Source: a virus. Taken from it: DNA of 10,956 nucleotides. Positions 2,340-10,517 of this stretch are shown in pieces. The stretch lies in the UHGV virus genome UHGV-0334393; one strand, given 5' to 3'. The notes below the pieces were generated by a model, which saw nothing but the letters and a program-made list of their open reading frames with translations, did no database searches and was not told where the DNA came from. A program made the translations under genes and the position numbers. Position 1 is the first letter of the stretch. Every line of letters starts with the position of its first letter.

Positions 2340-2351
2340 GGGGAACATATG

Positions 2352-2385
2352 ACACATAAAACAAAGGCGACCTGGGGCGGTCGCC
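2352..2385 (-). terminator. Rho-independent terminator for the minus-strand unit (stem GGCGACC / GGTCGCC, loop of 6, then a U-rich tract on the minus strand)
   Basis: On the minus strand the hairpin at 2366..2385 is followed by TTTGTTTTAT. On the plus strand it is not followed by a T-run. It sits between the convergent alpA-like and RHH-like genes. Confidence 0.5.
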
Positions 2386-2449
2386 AATGGGAAAACACTA
2401 AACATAAGCCCGAACATCATAGCGATTTGCTGGCTGGTGGGCAATGCAA

Positions 2450-2623
2450 TCAGTCTGGTTCAGTTCGTTGCCATACCTGCAATGAGCGCGTTTCCCTGTA
2501 CTCTTTAAGGAATTGCTCAAGGGCAAAAGCACATGGCGCGAATCGTTCTGATTCATGCTCTTTCTTTCTGCGTCGTCTTTTTCGTGCAGGTGATGTTTTT
2601 TCGGTTGATTCTTCGTTGGTCAT
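2450..2623 (-). CDS. Small, highly basic hypothetical protein (57 aa) downstream of the RHH-like gene; below the ORF-track length cutoff
   Basis: Manual translation of the minus strand gives MTNEESTEKTSPARKRRRRKKEHESERFAPCAFALEQFLKEYRETRSLQVWQRTEPD. It lies between the RHH-like gene and the minus-strand terminator. Ribosome-binding site is weak; coding status is uncertain. Confidence 0.25.
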   Translation of the reverse strand: MTNEESTEKTSPARKRRRRKKEHESERFAPCAFALEQFLKEYRETRSLQVWQRTEPD

Positions 2624-2680
2624 TGTGTGCGCCTGTAAAGCAATGCGCCGTAGTACCTCACACCACGGCGCTGATAGTGA

Positions 2681-2878
2681 TTATTCTGATTCTTTGGCCT
2701 TCCGGCGCTGTTCATATTTTAATTTGCGTCCACAGGCATCTAAGACCCATGCGGAAAAATTAGCACTAGGATTAGTTAATTTTTCTTGTTCAACGCTGGC
2801 ATCAATCCCATCTATAAGCTCATGTGGGAATCGAATATTTTTCTTTGCTGATTTGTTGTTTGTGTTACCGCTAGACAT
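2681..2878 (-). CDS. Ribbon-helix-helix (CopG/Arc/MetJ-like) DNA-binding protein; candidate repressor
   Basis: 65 aa. The pattern KNIRFPHELIDGIDASVEQ...NPSANFSAWVLDACG fits a beta-strand, helix, turn, helix RHH layout. GAGGTG Shine-Dalgarno about 6 nt upstream of the ATG on the minus strand. Its upstream region carries palindromic operators. Confidence 0.6.
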   Translation of the reverse strand: MSSGNTNNKSAKKNIRFPHELIDGIDASVEQEKLTNPSANFSAWVLDACGRKLKYEQRRKAKESE

Positions 2879-2907
2879 TGATGCACCTCACTTAAATGGA
2901 CTTTATG

Positions 2908-2986
2908 GGCGCACACAATACAGCAAAAAAAATGAGATGTTAAGTATTGACATGTGCGCACACATGATTTTAATCTGTGCGCACAG
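2908..2986. promoter_or_regulatory. Divergent promoter/operator region: perfect 10-bp palindrome TGTGCGCACA twice (2953..2962, 2976..2985) flanking a -10-like TTTAAT, with TTGACA at 2947..2952; related half-sites GGGCGCACACAAT (2908..2920) and ATTGTGTGCGCC (2621..2632)
   Basis: Palindromes and hexamers read directly from the sequence. TTGACA, a 16-bp spacer and TTTAAT point rightward toward the 3077.. operon; the operators overlap the spacer and the +1 region. Confidence 0.55.
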
Positions 2987-3076
2987 TTTGAGTTTTGTCA
3001 TTCAAATTAAGCAACGCCCCGCAGTGCTCGCAACACATGCAGGGCGTCTAACCAACAACGTAAACTAGGAGCCGTT

Positions 3077-3499: not shown

Positions 3500-3799
3500 A
3501 TGAAACTTAAATATTCTGGCTTAACTGCCAGTGGCAACACTCACCCTAAATTTACGCGCGGTGATATTTACCGCGACCAGTACGGCGGCACGGTAATGAT
3601 TAAGGGCGTGGCGGGACGGTGCGTAACTTACCGCCGTGAAGGTTACGAATATGATTGCGTGATGCCTGTTTATCAGTTCCGGCGTGATTTTTCTCTGGTA
3701 CAGACCGCGCCGCATAACGTGCCCACCAGCAACGCCAGAGCACGGGCAAACATCCAGAAGCTGAAAACAATGATTAACGGATTCAGGGGTAAAAAATGA
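3500..3799 (+). CDS. Hypothetical protein (99 aa)
   Basis: GGAGA Shine-Dalgarno 9 nt upstream; its stop overlaps the primase start (ATGA). No recognisable homology. Confidence 0.6.
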   Translation: MKLKYSGLTASGNTHPKFTRGDIYRDQYGGTVMIKGVAGRCVTYRREGYEYDCVMPVYQFRRDFSLVQTAPHNVPTSNARARANIQKLKTMINGFRGKK

Positions 3800-5928
3800 A
3801 ACTGGCACCGAACGTAAAACAGCAGTCACGCGGCATAAAACACAAAGAAACAGAAGTCATTATTTTTGCGGGTAGTGATGCCTGGTCACACGCAAAACAA
3901 TGGCAGGAACATGACGCGCGTATGGCCGGAGATAATGAGCCTCCTGTGTGGCTTGGGGAGCAGCAGTTATCCGAACTGGATAAGCTGCAAATTGTGCCGG
4001 AAGGCAGAAAATCAGTACGCATATTCAGGGCCGGACATCTTGAGCCAGTAATGATCAAGGCGATTGGTCAGAAACTGGCGGCGGCAGGCGTACAGGATGC
4101 AAATTTTTACCCTGAGGGAATGCACGTTCAGAAGGTGGAGAACTGGCGCGAATATCTGGCCCGTGAGCGGCAGAATCTTTCTGATGGTCTGGTTATTGAG
4201 CTTCCGGTAAAGAAAAAAGATACCGGAAGTCATAGCGATGACGAATTAAAGCCACGCGTTGAAAGTCGCGCCGATGGTGTTTTCTGGGTAACGCCCAAAG
4301 TGGATAAGCAGTCAGGCGAAATTATCCGGCCTGAGACGTGGTTATGTTCTCCGCTTGAACTACTGGGAACGGGGACGATCGGTAAAGAGCATTACCGCGT
4401 GATGCGCTGGAAAAAAACCGCAAACCATGAAGTCATCACAATGGCGATCCCGTGTGGTGGTATCGGCGACCGTGACGGCTGGCGGTTACTTAAAGATCAC
4501 GGGCTGAACGTGACAACCAACGGCAAATACAGGGCAATCCTGGCGGACTGGATGCAGTTAAGCGGAAGCCATGAGGAATGGCAGTTAAGCACAACAACGG
4601 GCTGGCATTTTGGCGCGTACATCATGCCGGACGGTTCGATCATTGGTGATTCTGAAAAACCGATCCTGTTTACCGGAAAAAGCGCCGCGATTAACGGTTA
4701 TTCCGTGGCGGGTACGGCGGAGGGCTGGCGCGAGAGTGTGGCGCGGCTGGCTGGCGGTAATGCCTCAATGATGCTGGGTGTGGCAACGTCACTGGCAGCG
4801 CCTTTAATTGGCCTTGTGGGTGCTGACGGCTTCGGGGTGCATCTTTTCGAACAGTCATCGGCAGGTAAGACCACCACGCAGAACATCGCATCAAGTTTAT
4901 GGGGAGAGCCGGACGCGCAGCGGCTGACCTGGTACGGCACGGCGTTAGGTATTGCCAATGAGGCCGAGGCCCATAATGACGGGCTTTTACCACTGGATGA
5001 GATAGGCCAGGCCGGAAATGCGCGGGAAGTGTCAACGTCTGCTTATACGCTGTTTAACGGTTCAGGGAAATTGCAGGGGGCGAAGGATGGCGGCAACAGG
5101 GAGATCAAACACTGGCGAACGGTGGCAATCAGCACCGGAGAAATGGACGTTGAGACATTCCTCAAAAGTGAGGGGATAAAAGTTAAGGCGGGGCAGCTTG
5201 TCCGACTGCTTAACGTTCCGATGGAAAAAGCCACGAAATTTCACGAATACAGCAACGGTAAGGAACATGCTGACGCGTTAAAGGATGCCTGGACAGCAAA
5301 TCACGGGGCGGCGGGTCGTGAGTGGGTTAAATGGCTGGCAGGCCACCAGCAGGAGGCAAAGGACACGGTAAGGGAATGCCGCGAACGGTGGCGCAACCTG
5401 ATACCGGAGAGTTACGGCGAGCAGGTCCACCGCGTGGGTGAACGTTTCGCCATACTGGAGGCCGCGCTTGTGCTTTCCGGTCATGTAACTGGCTGGGTCG
5501 TGCAGGAATGCCGCGACGCGATACAGCATAACTTTAATGCCTGGGTGAAGGAGTTCGGCACGGGTAACAGGGAATTTAAACAGATGGTTGAACAGGCTGA
5601 GGCGTTTTTGTCGTCGTTTGGGTTTAGCCGCTACCTTCCGTACCCCAATACAGATGAGCGTGATTTACCGATTAAAGAGCTTGCCGGATACAGAAAAGGG
5701 AGCATTCGCAACGAAGATGACGAGATGCGCTATTACACGTTCCCGCACGTGTTTGAGAGTGAGATAGCGAAGGGATTTAATCCGGCGCATTTTGCGCGTG
5801 CCCTGGATGCTGCCGGAATGCTGGAGAAGGGAAGCGATCGCCGATACAAAAAAAAGGCGCTGGGCAAGATTGGGGGTAAGCAGCATGTTTTTTACGTGCT
5901 GATGTTCCAGCCTGATGATGAAGATTAA
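3796..5928 (+). CDS. Replication initiator, primase/helicase type (DUF927/D5-like; SF3-like ATPase domain)
   Basis: 710 aa. Walker A SSAGKTT and Walker B LLPLDEIG motifs in the central region. N-terminal region is consistent with a toprim/primase-like domain. An iteron origin lies immediately downstream, as in PICI pri-rep modules. Confidence 0.9.
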   Translation: MKLAPNVKQQSRGIKHKETEVIIFAGSDAWSHAKQWQEHDARMAGDNEPPVWLGEQQLSELDKLQIVPEGRKSVRIFRAGHLEPVMIKAIGQKLAAAGVQDANFYPEGMHVQKVENWREYLARERQNLSDGLVIELPVKKKDTGSHSDDELKPRVESRADGVFWVTPKVDKQSGEIIRPETWLCSPLELLGTGTIGKEHYRVMRWKKTANHEVITMAIPCGGIGDRDGWRLLKDHGLNVTTNGKYRAILADWMQLSGSHEEWQLSTTTGWHFGAYIMPDGSIIGDSEKPILFTGKSAAINGYSVAGTAEGWRESVARLAGGNASMMLGVATSLAAPLIGLVGADGFGVHLFEQSSAGKTTTQNIASSLWGEPDAQRLTWYGTALGIANEAEAHNDGLLPLDEIGQAGNAREVSTSAYTLFNGSGKLQGAKDGGNREIKHWRTVAISTGEMDVETFLKSEGIKVKAGQLVRLLNVPMEKATKFHEYSNGKEHADALKDAWTANHGAAGREWVKWLAGHQQEAKDTVRECRERWRNLIPESYGEQVHRVGERFAILEAALVLSGHVTGWVVQECRDAIQHNFNAWVKEFGTGNREFKQMVEQAEAFLSSFGFSRYLPYPNTDERDLPIKELAGYRKGSIRNEDDEMRYYTFPHVFESEIAKGFNPAHFARALDAAGMLEKGSDRRYKKKALGKIGGKQHVFYVLMFQPDDED

Positions 5929-5950
5929 TCCCCTGTGTGAGGAAAAAAAT

Positions 5951-6290
5951 TGCGGGTTATGCGGGTTATCCTGTGTATAAGTGTATTAAGTGCATGAATA
6001 TAAAGGAAACCAATAACCCGCACGTAACCCGCAAAAGGGCATTTATAACCCGCAAAAGCACGATTATAACCCGCAGGCGAATAACTGAAGTAACACCGGA
6101 CAGTCATGCGTAACCCGCAGAAAAAAAACCGTTTGCGGGTTATTTTGAGCGTTTTGCGGGTTACGTGGTGAGCAAATAATAAACAGGGTGTTTTGCAAAA
6201 TACTGATATAAAAGGATAAAAAATGGTTAGCACGCTAAGATAACCCAATAACCCGCATAACCCGCACATGTTTCTATATATATATAAATT
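5951..6290. repeat. Replication origin: iterons TAACCCGCA / TGCGGGTTA in both orientations (copies at 5951..5968, 6013..6075, 6111..6119, 6134..6164, 6241..6266) followed by a (TA)n unwinding-element-like tract (6275..6290)
   Basis: At least twelve copies of the 9-mer or close variants counted directly, with irregular spacing and an AT-rich tract. Located just downstream of the replication protein. Confidence 0.75.
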
Positions 6291-6300
6291 GAGGTGGCAA

Positions 6301-6552
6301 ATGACCAGAACACGCAGAGACAGAACAGAGCCAAAATATAAAGCGTTAGACATGACTGAGCACACCTTAAAGGTGGCAATCAGAACGATAGACCGCCACA
6401 CGCGGGAAGGATACGCGAAGGAACATCCCGACCTGATAAGCGCATTCATGACCACAGCGGCGGCAAACTTTGCCACGCTGACAGAACGGGAGATTGCCGA
6501 AGCGGAACAGGTAACAACCATCAACGTTAAAACCGGAGAGGTGGAATCATGA
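6301..6552 (+). CDS. Hypothetical protein (83 aa), translationally coupled to ssb
   Basis: GAGGTGG Shine-Dalgarno 5 nt upstream of the ATG at 6301. The tracked ORF start at 6268 lies inside the iterons and has no Shine-Dalgarno. Its stop overlaps the ssb start (ATGA). Confidence 0.6.
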   Translation: MTRTRRDRTEPKYKALDMTEHTLKVAIRTIDRHTREGYAKEHPDLISAFMTTAAANFATLTEREIAEAEQVTTINVKTGEVES

Positions 6553-6959
6553 CAGCACAGATAGCCGCTTACGGGCGGCTGGTGGACGACCCGCAGGTAA
6601 AACAGACCAGCAAGGGCACACCGATGACGCTGGCGCGTATGGCGGTCCCCCTTCCGTGCAGCCAGGCAGATGACGGAACGGCTACGTTATGGCTGTCCGT
6701 CATCGCATTTGGCAAGCAGGCCGACTTCCTGGCTAAACATCAAAAAGGCGACGTTGCCAGCGTATCTGGCGTGATGCAGATAAGCCAGTGGACCGGACAG
6801 AACGGGGAAACGCGGCAGGGTTATCAGGTTATTGCAGACAGCGTAATCAGTGCCCGTGCGGCACGTCCTGGCGGGAACAGACGCAAAACCACAGGCGCAC
6901 AGGGTAATCAGCCACCAGCGGGAGACGATGACCCCTACGGTGATGATATTCCGTTCTGA
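6549..6959 (+). CDS. ssb: Single-stranded DNA-binding protein (short SSB with OB fold and acidic C-terminal tip)
   Basis: 136 aa. Collinear similarity to E. coli SSB (GRLVDDPQVKQT..., W..VIAFGKQADFLAKHQKGD..., ...W.DQ.G..R) and the hallmark C-terminal DDIPF tail after a Gly/Pro/Gln-rich linker. Confidence 0.85.
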   Translation: MTAQIAAYGRLVDDPQVKQTSKGTPMTLARMAVPLPCSQADDGTATLWLSVIAFGKQADFLAKHQKGDVASVSGVMQISQWTGQNGETRQGYQVIADSVISARAARPGGNRRKTTGAQGNQPPAGDDDPYGDDIPF

Positions 6960-6967
6960 ACGCACAG

Positions 6968-6989
6968 GCCGGAGAAAATCCGGCTTTTT
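6968..6989 (+). terminator. Rho-independent terminator (stem GCCGGA / TCCGGC, loop GAAAA, then T5)
   Basis: Hairpin plus T-run immediately after the ssb stop codon. Confidence 0.7.
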
Positions 6990-6995
6990 GTACCC

Positions 6996-7038
6996 AAAAA
7001 AAGCCCGATAAGTACAGGAGGAAGCTTATCGGGCTTTT
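6996..7038. terminator. Bidirectional rho-independent terminator (10-bp stem GCCCGATAAG / CTTATCGGGC flanked by A7 and T4)
   Basis: Perfect 10-bp stem with a 12-nt loop; A-run on the 5' side and T-run on the 3' side. Confidence 0.6.
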
Positions 7039-7112
7039 GCTTACGAGGTTAACAGCATGGTGACTACTGTTGCTGTAAATCATTTCATAATTTGCAACGC
7101 AACTCAATTTTA

Positions 7113-7161
7113 TTGCGCAAAATGCAATCATGATTATAATCATGACTGGATGAACATCCAG
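7113..7161 (+). promoter_or_regulatory. Promoter P1 for the capsid operon: -35 TTGCGC (7113..7118), 16-bp spacer, -10 TATAAT (7135..7140) inside a perfect 18-bp palindrome TCATGATTATAATCATGA (7128..7145), followed by the inverted repeat CTGGATG-AA-CATCCAG (7146..7161)
   Basis: Hexamers and palindromes read directly; positioned about 55 bp upstream of the first capsid-operon start codon. The palindrome over the -10 suggests operator control. Confidence 0.55.
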
Positions 7162-7196
7162 TTATGATTTTTTAAGTCAAAGAGGAATTTCTGACT

Positions 7197-7403
7197 ATGG
7201 CAGAAGAGAAAAAAGGTGGTGTTTCGGTGTACATAAGCCCCGAAATCGTGGAGGTGCTCAAGCAGCGCCACAAAAAAAACTATGAGGCTGGCGTAGCGGC
7301 TGGACTGGATCCGCTGATGACGCCGGAGCCGTCGATAGGTTCACTTGTGCGCTCTTATTTACTTGCGGCGCTTGGGATGCATAAAAATTATGGGGGTGAA
7401 TAA
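7197..7403 (+). CDS. Hypothetical protein (68 aa), first gene of the capsid operon
   Basis: AGAGGA Shine-Dalgarno; stop overlaps the downstream start (TAATG). No recognisable homology. Confidence 0.6.
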   Translation: MAEEKKGGVSVYISPEIVEVLKQRHKKNYEAGVAAGLDPLMTPEPSIGSLVRSYLLAALGMHKNYGGE

Positions 7404-8458
7404 TGACAGGCAAAGCAACGGCACTTAACACTAACCAGCTTTTCATGTACCTGAATCGCGGGGATATTGCGGATTTTAAATTCAGCCCTCTGTTTACCAC
7501 GCTGTTTTTCCCGAACGTGGCGACATTCAGCACGCAAAACATCATGCTGGATACCCTGGACATTGAAGAAGTCACCATGTCGGCGTTTTGTTCGCCTATG
7601 GTTGGCAGCCAGGTACAGCGCGATAAAGGGTACGAAACCAGCACAATTAAACCTGGCTACATGAAGCCAAAGCACGAAATCGATCCAACGAAAACCATCA
7701 TGCGCATGGCTGGAGAAGATCCGGCACAGCTTAACGACCCTACCTACCGACGTATGCGCCTTATTACTGGCAACATGCGCCGCCAGATAAACGCCATTAA
7801 AGCGCGCGTGGAATGGCTGGCGGTGAATGCGATAACGACCGGAAAAAACATCATTGAGGGCGAAGGCATAGAACGCTATGAAATCGACTGGAAAATACCG
7901 GAAAACTGCATCATAGAGCAGGCCAAGGGTAAAAAATGGTCCGAGCATGATAAAGATATTTACGATCCAATCTATGACATCGAACTATACGCAGATCAGG
8001 CAGGTTGCCCCGCCAACGTCATGATTATGGGCGCTGAGGTATGGCGCACGTTACGCAGCTTTAAAAAATTCCGCGAACTGTACGATCTTTCCCGTGGTTC
8101 AGAATCCGCCGCAGAACTGGCCTGTAAAAACCTGGGTGAAGTAGTGAGCTTTAAAGGCTATCTGGGCGATATTGCCCTTATCGTCTATTCCGGCAAATAC
8201 ACTGACAGCGACGGTACCGAAAAATATTTCCTTGAGCCTGATTTGCTGGTCCTGGGTAACACCAACAACAAAGGGCTGGTGGCCTATGGTGCGATTATGG
8301 ATCAGGAAGCTGTAAGAACAGGCGCAACGCAAAACATGTACTACCCGAAAAACTGGATTGAGGACGGCGATCCGGCGATTGAGTACGTGCAGACGCACAG
8401 CGCACCGCAGCCGGTACCGGCAGACATTCGCAAATTTGTTACCGTCAAAATTGGTTAA
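7403..8458 (+). CDS. Major capsid protein, lambda gpE family
   Basis: 351 aa, collinear with lambda gpE (341 aa) from memory: FKFSPLFTTLFFPN vs FKFDPLFLRLFFRE; PGYMKPKHEIDP vs PGYVKPKHEVNP; YPKNWIEDGDPAIEYVQTHSAP vs YPKNWVTTGDPAREFTMIQSAP. Good Shine-Dalgarno (GGGGGTGA). Confidence 0.9.
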   Translation: MTGKATALNTNQLFMYLNRGDIADFKFSPLFTTLFFPNVATFSTQNIMLDTLDIEEVTMSAFCSPMVGSQVQRDKGYETSTIKPGYMKPKHEIDPTKTIMRMAGEDPAQLNDPTYRRMRLITGNMRRQINAIKARVEWLAVNAITTGKNIIEGEGIERYEIDWKIPENCIIEQAKGKKWSEHDKDIYDPIYDIELYADQAGCPANVMIMGAEVWRTLRSFKKFRELYDLSRGSESAAELACKNLGEVVSFKGYLGDIALIVYSGKYTDSDGTEKYFLEPDLLVLGNTNNKGLVAYGAIMDQEAVRTGATQNMYYPKNWIEDGDPAIEYVQTHSAPQPVPADIRKFVTVKIG

Positions 8459-8469
8459 CTGGGGATTCT

Positions 8470-8805
8470 ATGAACACTCCATACATTGAGTTATTTGCAG
8501 GCAGTCAGCAGGTATCAACGACGCTGGTACATTTTGCCGCTGATGCTGGCTTTATTCAGGAATTTACCCCGCTGATGCTGTCAGACAATGGCGAGTTTAA
8601 GCCGTGGGATGGTCAGGAATCTGGCAAGGCTGTTTATCTGACTTCGTACCCCGTGGACACGTCGACGCAGAAATCAGCACAGTGTTACAAGACGGGGATA
8701 TTTAATATCGCCGCCGTAAACTGGCCTGAGAGCGCCGACACTGACGCGAAAAAATGCGCCGCCTTTGCGGGTTCTGGCGTATCCGTTCAGCCGCTGGCGC
8801 GATAA
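8470..8805 (+). CDS. Head decoration protein, lambda gpD family
   Basis: 111 aa versus lambda gpD at 110 aa. Shared motifs TPLMLSDNGEFKPWDG vs TPLMLDTSSRKLVAWDG and KKCAAFAGSGVSVQ vs KKRTAFAGTAISIV. Immediately downstream of the gpE-like gene. Confidence 0.85.
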   Translation: MNTPYIELFAGSQQVSTTLVHFAADAGFIQEFTPLMLSDNGEFKPWDGQESGKAVYLTSYPVDTSTQKSAQCYKTGIFNIAAVNWPESADTDAKKCAAFAGSGVSVQPLAR

Positions 8806-8817
8806 GCAGGGGAAACG

Positions 8818-9231
8818 ATGGCAACGAATGAAAGCATCATGGCGCTACCGCTGGCGAGTAAATTTAAAGCAGAAGCGCGGGCAATGGCTGACAGAGGTTT
8901 ATCAACCTACGAGGCCGTATATCAACTCAACAAACTGGAAGAGCAGGACAAGCCGCGCGCTGATGCGATTATGGCGCTTCATGAACATAACGACTATCAG
9001 CCGCTGTTACGTGCAATGGCAAACGTGCCATGTATTAGCGTCGATAATGCTCGTGAAATCCTGAACATGACCATAGAGCAGGAGCGCCCAAAGGTTGCGC
9101 CGGAGCTTACCGCAGCCTTTGAAAACTTTATGGACATGCACAGCCCGAAAGCCGTATCACCCGGCATGGCATACGACGGCAGAAACCAGGGCGATGAAGG
9201 CGACGTCGATCGCATACTGAAAACCATCTGA
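8818..9231 (+). CDS. Hypothetical protein (137 aa), last gene of the capsid operon
   Basis: AGGGGAA Shine-Dalgarno; followed directly by a terminator. No convincing similarity to lambda FI, W or Nu3 by eye. Confidence 0.7.
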   Translation: MATNESIMALPLASKFKAEARAMADRGLSTYEAVYQLNKLEEQDKPRADAIMALHEHNDYQPLLRAMANVPCISVDNAREILNMTIEQERPKVAPELTAAFENFMDMHSPKAVSPGMAYDGRNQGDEGDVDRILKTI

Positions 9232-9237
9232 CATAAG

Positions 9238-9260
9238 GCCGGAGAAATCCGGCTTTTTTT
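9238..9260 (+). terminator. Rho-independent terminator (stem GCCGGA / TCCGGC, loop GAAA, T7); near-identical copy of the hairpin at 6968..6989
   Basis: Hairpin plus T7 run 7 nt after the stop of the 137-aa ORF. Confidence 0.75.
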
Positions 9261-9330
9261 ACGGGTCCTTTCCGGCATATGGACCCGTTACGGGGCGGCG
9301 ACCTCGCGCGTTTTCGCTATTTATGAGCCT
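9261..9330 (+). other. cos site 1 (plus orientation): lambda-like cosQ (9261..9292), cosN 12-nt cohesive-end sequence GGGCGGCGACCT (9293..9304), and the start of cosB (CGCGCGTTTTCGCTATTTATGA), diverging after about 9328
   Basis: ACGGGTCCTTTCCGG...GTTACG|GGGCGGCGACCT|CGCG.GTTTTCGCTATTTATGA matches the lambda right-end/left-end junction as recalled. Downstream sequence up to the terS start differs from lambda cosB. Confidence 0.8.
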
Positions 9331-9437: not shown

Positions 9438-9980
9438 ATGAAATCGCACCTGATGAACAAAAAAAACATGGCGAAAAGCTGCCGTGTAAGTGCGACAGCG
9501 TTCGACAAGTGGGGAGTGACTCCCGTTGAACGTAAAGGCCGTGAGGCGTTTTATGATGTTGCCAGCGTGATAGACAATAGGGTTAACAATGCAATTAGCC
9601 AGCTTACAAACGACAAAGGCGATATTGATGATGATGAACTCTTACGAGTCAGGATCAGATTACTGACAGCACAGGCGGAGGCGCAGGAACTTAAAAACGA
9701 GCGCGATCGCGGTGACGTGATTGATACTGAGTTTTGCCTGTACGCGCTTTCAAAGCTGGCGAGTCAGATTTCATCAATCATGGACAGCCTCCCGCTTACT
9801 ATGCAAAGGAGCTTCCCACAGATTACCCCCGCCATGCTGGACAGGCTTAAAAGGGAAGTGGTTAAAGCCTGTAATGCCAGTGCCAGAGTTGCCGACAACC
9901 TCCCACAGATACTGGCTGATTACTTGAAAGAAACAACCGGAAACGTACCGGAAAAGTTGCTACAGAAGAAAGGCAAGTAA
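9438..9980 (+). CDS. Terminase small subunit, lambda Nu1 family (island-encoded TerS)
   Basis: 180 aa versus Nu1 at 181 aa. Strong central similarity: LLTAQAEAQELKNERDRGDVIDTEFCLYALSKLASQISSIMDSLPLTMQRSFPQI vs Nu1 LTRAQADAQELKNARDSAEVVETAFCTFVLSRIAGEIASILDGLPLSVQRRFPEL. The N-terminal HTH region is also alignable (NKK..., YD.A.VI). Lies directly downstream of cos 1, as in lambda. Confidence 0.85.
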   Translation: MKSHLMNKKNMAKSCRVSATAFDKWGVTPVERKGREAFYDVASVIDNRVNNAISQLTNDKGDIDDDELLRVRIRLLTAQAEAQELKNERDRGDVIDTEFCLYALSKLASQISSIMDSLPLTMQRSFPQITPAMLDRLKREVVKACNASARVADNLPQILADYLKETTGNVPEKLLQKKGK

Positions 9981-10006: not shown

Positions 10007-10202
10007 GAGAAAGGATCTGATAATGGCATTTTCTGGCTAAAATGCCTCGTGTCAGATCCTTTCTTTTTTTAATATTTTCATTGTTAAACAGTCTGTTACA
10101 GAGAAGAAGAACGGATCTGACTTTTGCCGGAAAATTTTCATAAACAGATAAAAACCGCGAGGTCGCCGCCCCGTAACGGGCCATAATTCCAGGAAGGACC
10201 CG
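10007..10202 (-). other. cos site 2 (minus orientation): cosQ-like (10172..10202), cosN (complement of 10160..10171), and a canonical lambdoid cosB with three R-site-like repeats (AGAAAGGATCTGA 10008..10020, TCAGATCCTTTCT 10052..10064, AGAACGGATCTGA 10108..10120) and an AT-rich IHF-like segment
   Basis: The reverse complement reads GGGCGGCGACCTCGCGGTTTTTATCTGTTTATGAAAATTTTCCGG...CCGTTCTTCTTC..., near-collinear with the recalled lambda left end through cosB. The middle repeat is inverted relative to the outer two. Confidence 0.8.
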
Positions 10203-10235: not shown

Positions 10236-10517
10236 ATGACAGAAGCCGAAATACTGGGATTAATCCGCCGCGTTGCCGGAATCAGCCAGCAGGTTGACGA
10301 ACAGGCCACGCAGCCGGACAGCGTGACCGCTGAAAATTATGCGCGTGTTGTTGCGGAGGTGATGCGCCGTGATGGTATAGAACTTAATGGCGTGGATATG
10401 CGCAACATACGAACCAGAGTTCTTGAGTTGCTGGCCTACCGTCGCCGTGTGGAGATGTATCGGGAGAAGGAGAAAATAACGTACCACTGGAAGAAGCCGG
10501 AGCGGTTGCGGCGGTAA
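10236..10517 (+). CDS. Hypothetical protein (93 aa)
   Basis: GGGGG-type Shine-Dalgarno 6 nt upstream of the ATG; plausible amino-acid composition; no recognisable homology. Confidence 0.5.
   Translation: MTEAEILGLIRRVAGISQQVDEQATQPDSVTAENYARVVAEVMRRDGIELNGVDMRNIRTRVLELLAYRRRVEMYREKEKITYHWKKPERLRR

Follow-up and report, generated by a model that had tools for sequence, protein, structure and literature searches.

The stretch of DNA analysed here, 10,956 nucleotides (nt) of the virus genome UHGV-0334393 (the window, in all that follows), is almost one entire satellite island, with genes on the + strand. The island, about 11 kb in size, is an Escherichia coli phage satellite of the EcCICFT073 type of phage-inducible chromosomal island (PICI), and its cassette of four genes at 7197-9231 is the subject of this report. 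The genes are:

7197-7403, + strand: 68-amino-acid (aa) protein, first gene of the operon, orthologue of CFT073 c1498
7403-8458, + strand: full-length major capsid protein of the lambda gpE family, 351 aa, orthologue of c1499
8470-8805, + strand: head decoration protein of the lambda gpD family, 111 aa, orthologue of c1500
8818-9231, + strand: 137-aa protein (p137), homologous to the scaffold part at the C-terminus of lambda gpC/Nu3, probable orthologue of c1501

Profile searches placed the 351-aa protein in the gpE family (PF03864 Phage_cap_E, E 2.6e-50, profile positions 16-328 of 329; phrog_29, E 1e-106), with 43% identity to lambda gpE over 327 of the 341 gpE residues, and the 111-aa protein in the gpD family (PF02924 HDPD, E 2.9e-17; phrog_49, E 2.3e-27), with 38% identity to gpD over 76 aa. 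The initial annotation, made from the letters alone, had called the same four genes at the same coordinates and had named a full-length gpE-type capsid protein and a gpD-type decoration protein; the formal searches agree on both. Its remark that the order is reversed also stands: E precedes D in the cassette, opposite to the C/Nu3-D-E order of lambda. In EcCICFT073, the orthologous island of E. coli CFT073, the capsid protein is 45% identical to the major capsid protein of the CFT073 helper prophage and the decoration protein 43% identical to helper D. The satellite capsid protein may assemble an icosahedral shell, for which the purifying selection described below gives indirect support. One database relative (P0170, 463 aa) has Phage_cap_E and HDPD in one polypeptide, an E-D fusion in the satellite order, which may be real or a sequencing frameshift.

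The third shell component was found in p137. It matched phrog_1999 (E 6.7e-62) and the C-terminus of the head maturation protease profile phrog_53 (E 1.5e-9), and in the reverse direction residues 117-200 of lambda Nu3 matched phrog_1999, the profile of the p137 family (E 2.7e-26). A tblastn search of p137 against all phage records gave a single match, the end of the gpC/Nu3 open reading frame (ORF) directly upstream of D in phage 204576; this segment is 36% identical to p137 over 83 aa, and the same segment aligns with lambda Nu3. The gpC of the CFT073 helper is a 501-aa S49 peptidase; its residues 416-493 have 37% identity to the EcCICFT073 orthologue of p137 (residues 49-131) and 36% to p137 of the window. 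The region common to p137 and gpC includes a repeated IMxL...PGMTVxxARxIL unit and a C-terminal tail that is acidic and then hydrophobic. Direct BLASTP of p137 against lambda Nu3 gave no match, hhalign of the shallow p137 family alignment against Nu3 gave a weak one (E 0.013), and sequence searches of p137 in Pfam, NCBIfam and the PDB gave none; we accepted the homology because the PHROG profiles agree both ways and intermediate phage sequences bridge the two proteins. The S49 protease domain is absent from p137 (no Pfam match), and its gene stands alone instead of being nested in a protease ORF. Judged by its sequence, p137 is a homologue of the scaffold domain, the segment common to the lambda protease and scaffold, and not an orthologue of gpC or Nu3. 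That the protein is scaffold-like had been proposed from its letters, and this homology gives the proposal substance.

The AlphaFold2 model of p137 is all-helical and of low confidence (predicted local distance difference test score 47.6); scaffold proteins often give low-confidence models. NCBI lists p137 as a 'phage head-tail connector protein', a name which we rejected as it has no NCBIfam support and which was probably inherited from 'head-tail preconnector', the older name of gpC. The protein has an internal repeat (IMAL...EARAMA / IMAL...LRAMA), and its 93-aa database variants (P0030 and P0031 were compared) are precise deletions between the two repeat copies. A 115-aa version without the FENFMDMHSP segment was found in a helper-embedded PICI relative.

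The four genes are joined by a 1-nt overlap (TAATG) between the 68-aa and capsid genes, 11 nt between the capsid and decoration genes and 12 nt between the decoration and 137-aa genes, each junction with a Shine-Dalgarno-like run of G. The stop codon of the 68-aa gene overlaps the capsid ATG, and the two genes are translationally coupled. The following control elements bound or precede the cassette:

6967-6989 and 7002-7039, + strand: two tandem intrinsic-terminator-like hairpins 3' of the single-stranded DNA-binding protein (SSB) gene, RNA folds of -14.2 kcal/mol (z -3.4) and -22.1 kcal/mol (z -5.4), with a T-run after each
7085-7140, + strand: upstream control region with TTGCA/TGCAA motifs and an inverted repeat, ATTGCG-N5-TGCAAT, over a weak -35
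7113-7118 and 7135-7140, + strand: candidate promoter read from the sequence, -35 TTGCGC, 16-nt spacer and perfect -10 TATAAT
7138-7175, + strand: hairpin with a 14-bp stem and T6 between the -10 element and the ribosome-binding site of the 68-aa gene, a terminator-like match with a fold of -22.7 kcal/mol (z -3.5)
9237-9260, + strand: intrinsic terminator of the cassette, GGCCGGAGAAATCCGGC then T7, fold of -14 kcal/mol (z -4.1), kept in relatives

As two hairpins follow SSB and a third follows the 137-aa gene, the cassette was taken to be a transcriptionally insulated operon. It had earlier been credited with both its own promoter and its own terminator; the terminator holds, as a hairpin with T7 at 9237-9260, whereas the TATAAT promoter at 7135-7140 was not called by a consensus promoter scan. 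A promoter belonging to the cassette is nevertheless plausible, and it is a candidate for activator dependence. About 110 bp of the upstream control region are conserved across five islands with differing replication modules, and the hairpin at 7138-7175, conserved in four of the five, could be an attenuator or an operator. Distant blastn of the control and hairpin region found no similarity to phage DNA, including lambdoid pR'/tR' regions, which leaves unsupported the idea that it mimics a lambdoid pR'/qut/tR' region at which helper Q would switch the operon on. A lambda cII-type TTGC-N6-TTGC site was likewise rejected, since the spacing read from the sequence does not fit. A near-identical terminator sequence (GGCCGGAGAAA(A)TCCGGC and a T-run) ends both the replication operon (6967-6989) and the capsid operon (9237-9260). 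A gene for a PerC-family regulator, which lies between SSB and the cassette in the CEA601S, CFT073 and O157 islands, is absent here (window 6960-7196, compared with L001 14950-15464 and L002 9487-10001); among the 80 related loci drawn from IMG/VR it is present in 48.

The 68-aa protein shows a weak likeness to ribbon-helix-helix proteins and is possibly DNA-binding. It has no similarity to lambda gpW, which is also of 68 aa, and no match in Pfam, NCBIfam, PDB-sequence or PADLOC searches. In the database protein P0135 the N-terminus of PerC is fused to the C-terminus of the 68-aa protein.

The remaining features of the island, from a search of the ORFs of the window with Pfam and PHROG profiles, are:

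482-1720, + strand: tyrosine integrase
2130-2339, + strand: AlpA regulator
3796-5928, + strand: 710-aa DUF927 primase, preceded by a DUF4222 protein
5950-6267: iteron field, TTGCGGGTTAT / ATAACCCGCA
6549-6959, + strand: SSB
7197-9231, + strand: cassette of the 68-aa, capsid, decoration and 137-aa genes
9261-9330, + strand: lambda-type cos with a cosQ-like segment, cosN GGGCGGCGACCT at 9293-9304 and the first bases of the lambda left end
9438-9980, + strand: Nu1-like small terminase (TerS), 180 aa, PF07471 E 2.3e-23, 35% identity to full-length lambda Nu1
10236-10517, + strand: 93-aa protein, 3' of a second cos, phrog_1561

The cos lies between the cassette and terS and aligns with bases 1-195 of lambda and with other islands. 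A second exact lambda cosN lies at 10160-10171 on the - strand, so that an inverted pair flanks terS, each with cosQ-like and left-end-like flanks; 0.04 exact matches to lambda cosN are expected by chance. EcCICFT073 has likewise been reported to have two cosN sites. In the 80 related loci the TerS position is occupied by TerS in 35 and by Rpp in 19. The 93-aa protein adjoins TerS or Rpp in 59-61 of the 80, with 63-82% identity across sub-lineages, and may be part of the packaging module.

The island has the hallmarks of a Gram-negative PICI, namely int, alpA, a primase, iterons, rightward genes, cos and terS, a specific attachment (att) site and no lysis or tail genes. It had been called a satellite from int, alpA, the primase and the iteron origin, and this gene set and the iterons (5950-6267) were confirmed. 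No portal, protease, large terminase (TerL), connector or tail gene was found in the window among its ORFs or by Pfam and PHROG. The closest complete relative, in E. coli CEA601S (96.8% identity), lies between cspD/yljB and clpS; judged from it, fewer than 700 bp separate the right end of the window from clpS, too little for more head genes on that side. The absence of portal, protease, TerL and tail genes noted in the initial annotation thus holds in the window and within the related islands, and also beyond the right end, where that annotation had allowed for a hidden head module. As neither the window, nor its right flank, nor the islands of the 80 related loci have their own portal, protease, head-tail adaptor/connector and TerL, membership in the capsid-forming PICIs (cf-PICIs) was rejected. 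PADLOC gave no matches, and membership in the defence systems was also rejected. Helper-driven induction, packaging and transfer have been demonstrated by experiment for EcCICFT073 only. A 239-aa ORF after alpA (2349-3068, + strand) is probably spurious; relatives annotate small leftward genes (YlcI/YnfO family, hypothetical) and Icd-like genes there, and long cysteine-rich ORFs of this kind recur unannotated across many loci.

Of 5,426 complete E. coli genomes, 590 have the full-length 2,035-bp cassette, with 90-97% identity. Gene order is constant in the 80 related loci (68aa-E-D-137aa-(TerS or Rpp)-93aa), and the ORFs are intact in 80/80 loci for the capsid protein (at 351 aa), 77/78 for D, 69/72 for p137 and 79/80 for the 68-aa protein. 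The pooled ratio of nonsynonymous to synonymous polymorphism (pN/pS) over these loci is 0.148 for the capsid gene, 0.105 for D, 0.30 for p137 and 0.32 for the 68-aa gene. Pairwise Nei-Gojobori omega against four islands is 0.05-0.15 for the capsid gene (with synonymous divergence up to 1.0), about 0.1-0.16 for D, 0.18-0.33 for p137 (closest pairs excepted) and 0.22-0.29 for the 68-aa gene, with 0.06-0.23 for SSB. Purifying selection on the cassette is as strong as on the SSB of the island.

Matches to lambda A, B, C, W, FI and FII occur in just four of the 80 loci and lie outside the island gene set: in L022 the island visibly interrupts the lambda portal gene B, as in the helper-embedded PICIs of PMC10111431, and the matches of L023, L041 and L076 are at the locus edge. 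In another locus, L010, a terminase-like ORF lies to the left of the island. Relatives embedded in late regions of helper prophages are among L005, L022, L023, L076 and L092; L005 lies between head-completion and P2-like baseplate genes, and L092 splits the helper capsid gene E while bearing its own E-D pair.

Capsid relatives were found at 84-96% identity in E. coli, 67-69% in Salmonella, 64% in E. coli and Edwardsiella, and 54-59% in E. coli, Serratia, Cedecea and Lelliottia. The four relative contexts that were opened are all PICIs with E then D and without their own portal, protease or TerL. None of the 50,697 phage genome records has a capsid protein more than 46% identical. Since the E-D pair persists in PICIs down to 54% capsid identity while phages reach 46% at most, the data point to an old satellite-specific lineage (Escherichia, Salmonella, Serratia) and to long residence in satellites, not recent capture. 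The flanking genes vary, the 68-aa gene being present in three of four sub-lineages and the Nu3-like gene in two of four. The 141-aa Nu3-like version of one sub-lineage aligns with 132 residues of helper gpC, and the Salmonella sub-lineage has nothing in the place of this gene. In the 55% capsid lineage (E. coli, Serratia) a 114-117-aa AlpA-type helix-turn-helix protein follows D (L091 11402-11746; L093 11403-11756), and there is no 68-aa gene before E.

The cassette is already known. It is the c1498-c1501 module of EcCICFT073, at 91.7% nt identity over all 2,035 bp (AAN79967 is c1498, the 68-aa protein; AAN79968 is c1499, the capsid protein), and it has been in the literature since 2018, when Fillol-Salom et al. 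labelled c1499 and c1500 as capsid protein and head decoration protein, respectively (PMC6092414); the initial annotation was mistaken in presenting it as a discovery. Reviews and surveys mention the capsid homologue without deciding on its role (PMC6893505, PMC10111431, PMC10085698), and our literature search found no paper resolving the function of the cassette or tying its third gene to Nu3. New here are the identification of p137 with the scaffold part of gpC/Nu3, the coupling and weak ribbon-helix-helix likeness of the 68-aa protein, the satellite-specific E-D lineage, and a caveat on how the published constructs were marked. The EcCICFT073 derivatives used in transfer, interference and DNA-size assays were c1501::tetA, c1499::cat and c1498-c1501::cas9, all marked inside the cassette by name. 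The order of accessions and the identity of c1503 with RppA make it most probable that the Nu3-like gene is c1501. In that case no assay may yet have used the operon intact, as far as the construct names in the text allow one to judge. Single-gene clones are blind to any joint activity of E, D and the scaffold, so that negative single-gene tests leave one possible.

Our preferred reading, which we hold tentatively and below even odds, is that the operon is a matched shell kit contributing to satellite heads built on the portal, protease and terminase of the helper. A lambdoid helper would induce the island, and the operon would be transcribed from its own insulated promoter, with the 68-aa protein, probably DNA-binding, made ahead of the shell proteins. 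The cassette products would then join head assembly on the helper portal, p137 acting as scaffold or adaptor, bound to the capsid protein by its Nu3-like C-terminus until the helper gpC protease removes it. The resulting heads, wholly or partly of satellite E, would receive their DNA from the adjacent satellite cos through helper TerL, which the TerS or Rpp of the island would direct, and would then be stabilised by satellite D and completed with helper connectors and tails. The size of such heads is left open.

This reading is favoured by the presence of three shell components that touch each other in lambda, kept in fixed order in one terminator-bounded operon beside cos and terS/rpp, on an island from which the unique-vertex and motor genes are all missing. 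The decoration protein gpD acts only on expanded, DNA-filled lambda-type shells. Because D, useful on filled shells only, is strictly kept with E, and is the best-conserved gene of the cassette (pN/pS 0.105), productive heads are favoured over dead-end poisoning. It also counts for a contribution to heads that p137 keeps the part of gpC/Nu3 common to protease and scaffold, with 36-37% identity to the C-terminus of a real helper gpC. The purifying selection, the presence of the cassette in 590 genomes and its long residence in satellites weigh in the same direction. There are precedents in the cf-PICIs, which build entire capsids (10.1101/2022.09.08.507074), and in helper-embedded relatives which sit inside the helper E gene and bear their own E-D pair (cf. 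PMC10111431).

Several points weigh against a role in satellite heads. Deletion of c1499 or c1500 left transfer and lambda interference unchanged, and packaged DNA was reported to be of phage size (PMC6092414); transfer was wild-type-like when c1499 was replaced by cat (PMC6092414); and in 2020 c1498-c1501 was swapped for cas9 as an 'adaptable module' in an island that was still transferred (PMC10530653). As these islands transfer normally, the shell genes are not needed with lambda, phi80 or CFT073 phage 4. The scaffold part is not universal, two sub-lineages lacking the Nu3-like gene. The presence of satellite E and D in particles is a prediction; that the helper protease would enter a shell whose E is 45% identical is an assumption; and the promoter is putative. 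The dispensability of the cassette in laboratory transfer would be explained if helper E, D and Nu3 can substitute for the satellite proteins.

A bolder form of the same reading, possible but somewhat doubtful, is that the island is 'semi-capsid-forming': it would make its own shell, perhaps satellite-sized, from E, D and the Nu3-derived adaptor or scaffold on the portal, protease and terminase of the helper, and would be intermediate, in function and in evolution, between classical PICIs and cf-PICIs. Such a nature would have gone unnoticed, since the published EcCICFT073 derivatives were all, by their names, marked inside c1498-c1501.

Among the alternatives, interference or size redirection survives best, though we consider it unlikely. 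The capsid homologue, acting like Ccm, and the Nu3-like protein, acting like CpmB, would co-assemble with helper proteins into heads that are small or aberrant and keep the helper genome out. The Ccm of SaPIbov5 is indeed a satellite capsid homologue, placed at the pentons of T=4 shells (PMC8569155); small heads are made by PmCI172, likewise equipped with a capsid homologue (PMC6092414); and the C-terminus of p137 resembles that of helper gpC/Nu3. However, lambda interference was not relieved by the c1499 or c1500 deletion and packaged DNA was of phage size. When the post-ori genes were cloned singly in 2019, lambda was inhibited by c1503 (RppA) only, and removing c1503 brought plaque formation back in full, at titres close to those of an island-free host (PMC6739421). 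Nor would a pure poison have an obvious need for its own decoration protein, held at an omega of about 0.1. The initial annotation had favoured poisoning of helper procapsids or redirection of their size; the deletions, DNA size and single-gene expression in EcCICFT073 all spoke against it, but as the published constructs were marked inside the cassette, head size may still respond to the operon when intact.

Still less probable is a back-up copy for a helper-embedded lifestyle, in which the resident E-D pair supplies capsid until excision and chromosomal islands have inherited it. Relatives do lie inside helper portal or E genes (L022, L092), and islands of this integrase clade often insert in helper late genes, E most often, for which a back-up role has been proposed (PMC10111431). 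Integration in E would spare D and Nu3, yet D is always carried; purifying selection is equally strong in islands at chromosomal sites (cspD/clpS, roxA/phoQ); and at about 45% identity to helper E the satellite protein is no simple spare copy. Finally, a captured lambdoid head module now functionless and in decay, a degraded prophage or pseudogene, would agree with the dispensability of the cassette in every laboratory assay but was rejected as essentially refuted, since the ORFs are intact in nearly all of the 80 loci and in 590 genomes, pN/pS is 0.10-0.32, order and overlaps are fixed, and the lineage has diverged across genera yet stayed intact.

Should the three proteins form or remodel satellite heads, the view of the way in which E. 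coli PICIs exploit lambdoid phages would change, and the gap between satellites that steal capsids and those that form them would be filled: classical PICIs steal whole capsids, and cf-PICIs steal tails only. The cassette is present in about one in nine complete E. coli genomes, and capsid genes have been reported as the commonest late gene of Gram-negative PICIs. The model island has been described as having no capsid-morphogenesis genes, its cassette serving as a disposable cargo slot, and engineered PICI 'drones' without the module would then need a second look. With the third gene identified as of Nu3 type, the function is open to a few direct experiments.

Compared with EcCICFT073, the present island has the same four genes in the same order with the same cos directly downstream. 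It differs in having a DUF927 primase, a full-length Nu1-like TerS and the att site cspD/clpS, where EcCICFT073 has a D5-type primase, RppA and roxA/phoQ, and in lacking a PerC gene upstream of the cassette. With the C/Nu3-D-E region of lambda it shares a homologous capsid protein (43%), decoration protein (38%) and C-terminal scaffold segment. The order in lambda is Nu3-D-E, with the scaffold nested in the protease ORF, whereas the cassette is arranged as E-D-Nu3C with a stand-alone 137-aa gene without the S49 protease, and it has no lambda-type portal, W, FI, FII or TerL. Like the cf-PICIs (e.g. EcCIEDL933), the island has its own capsid genes on a PICI backbone (int, alpA, rep); those islands, however, carry portal, protease, head-tail connectors, HNH, TerS, TerL and an HK97-type capsid protein, and this one carries shell components and TerS only.

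Satellite P4 supplies capsid-associated proteins, including the decoration protein Psu, for heads made with helper machinery (PMC6893505). Unlike the present island it has no capsid protein; its external scaffold, Sid, is no relative of Nu3, nor is Psu one of gpD. SaPIbov5 resembles this island in being cos-packaged and in encoding, in Ccm, a homologue of the helper major capsid protein. Ccm works alone, at the pentons, and shrinks the head; here the capsid homologue is accompanied by decoration and scaffold-like proteins, and for its EcCICFT073 orthologue, in contrast to Ccm, neither a size change nor interference was recorded in the marked constructs tested. The C-terminus of CpmB of SaPI1 resembles that of the 80alpha scaffold. 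CpmB is reported, in work of Dearborn et al. in 2017, to be an alternative internal scaffold which competes with that of the helper. CpmB redirects helper capsid protein to T=4, while p137 is encoded beside a cognate satellite capsid protein on which it is predicted to act. Like CpmB, p137 is a small helical satellite protein, and it is truly homologous to the C-terminus of helper gpC/Nu3.

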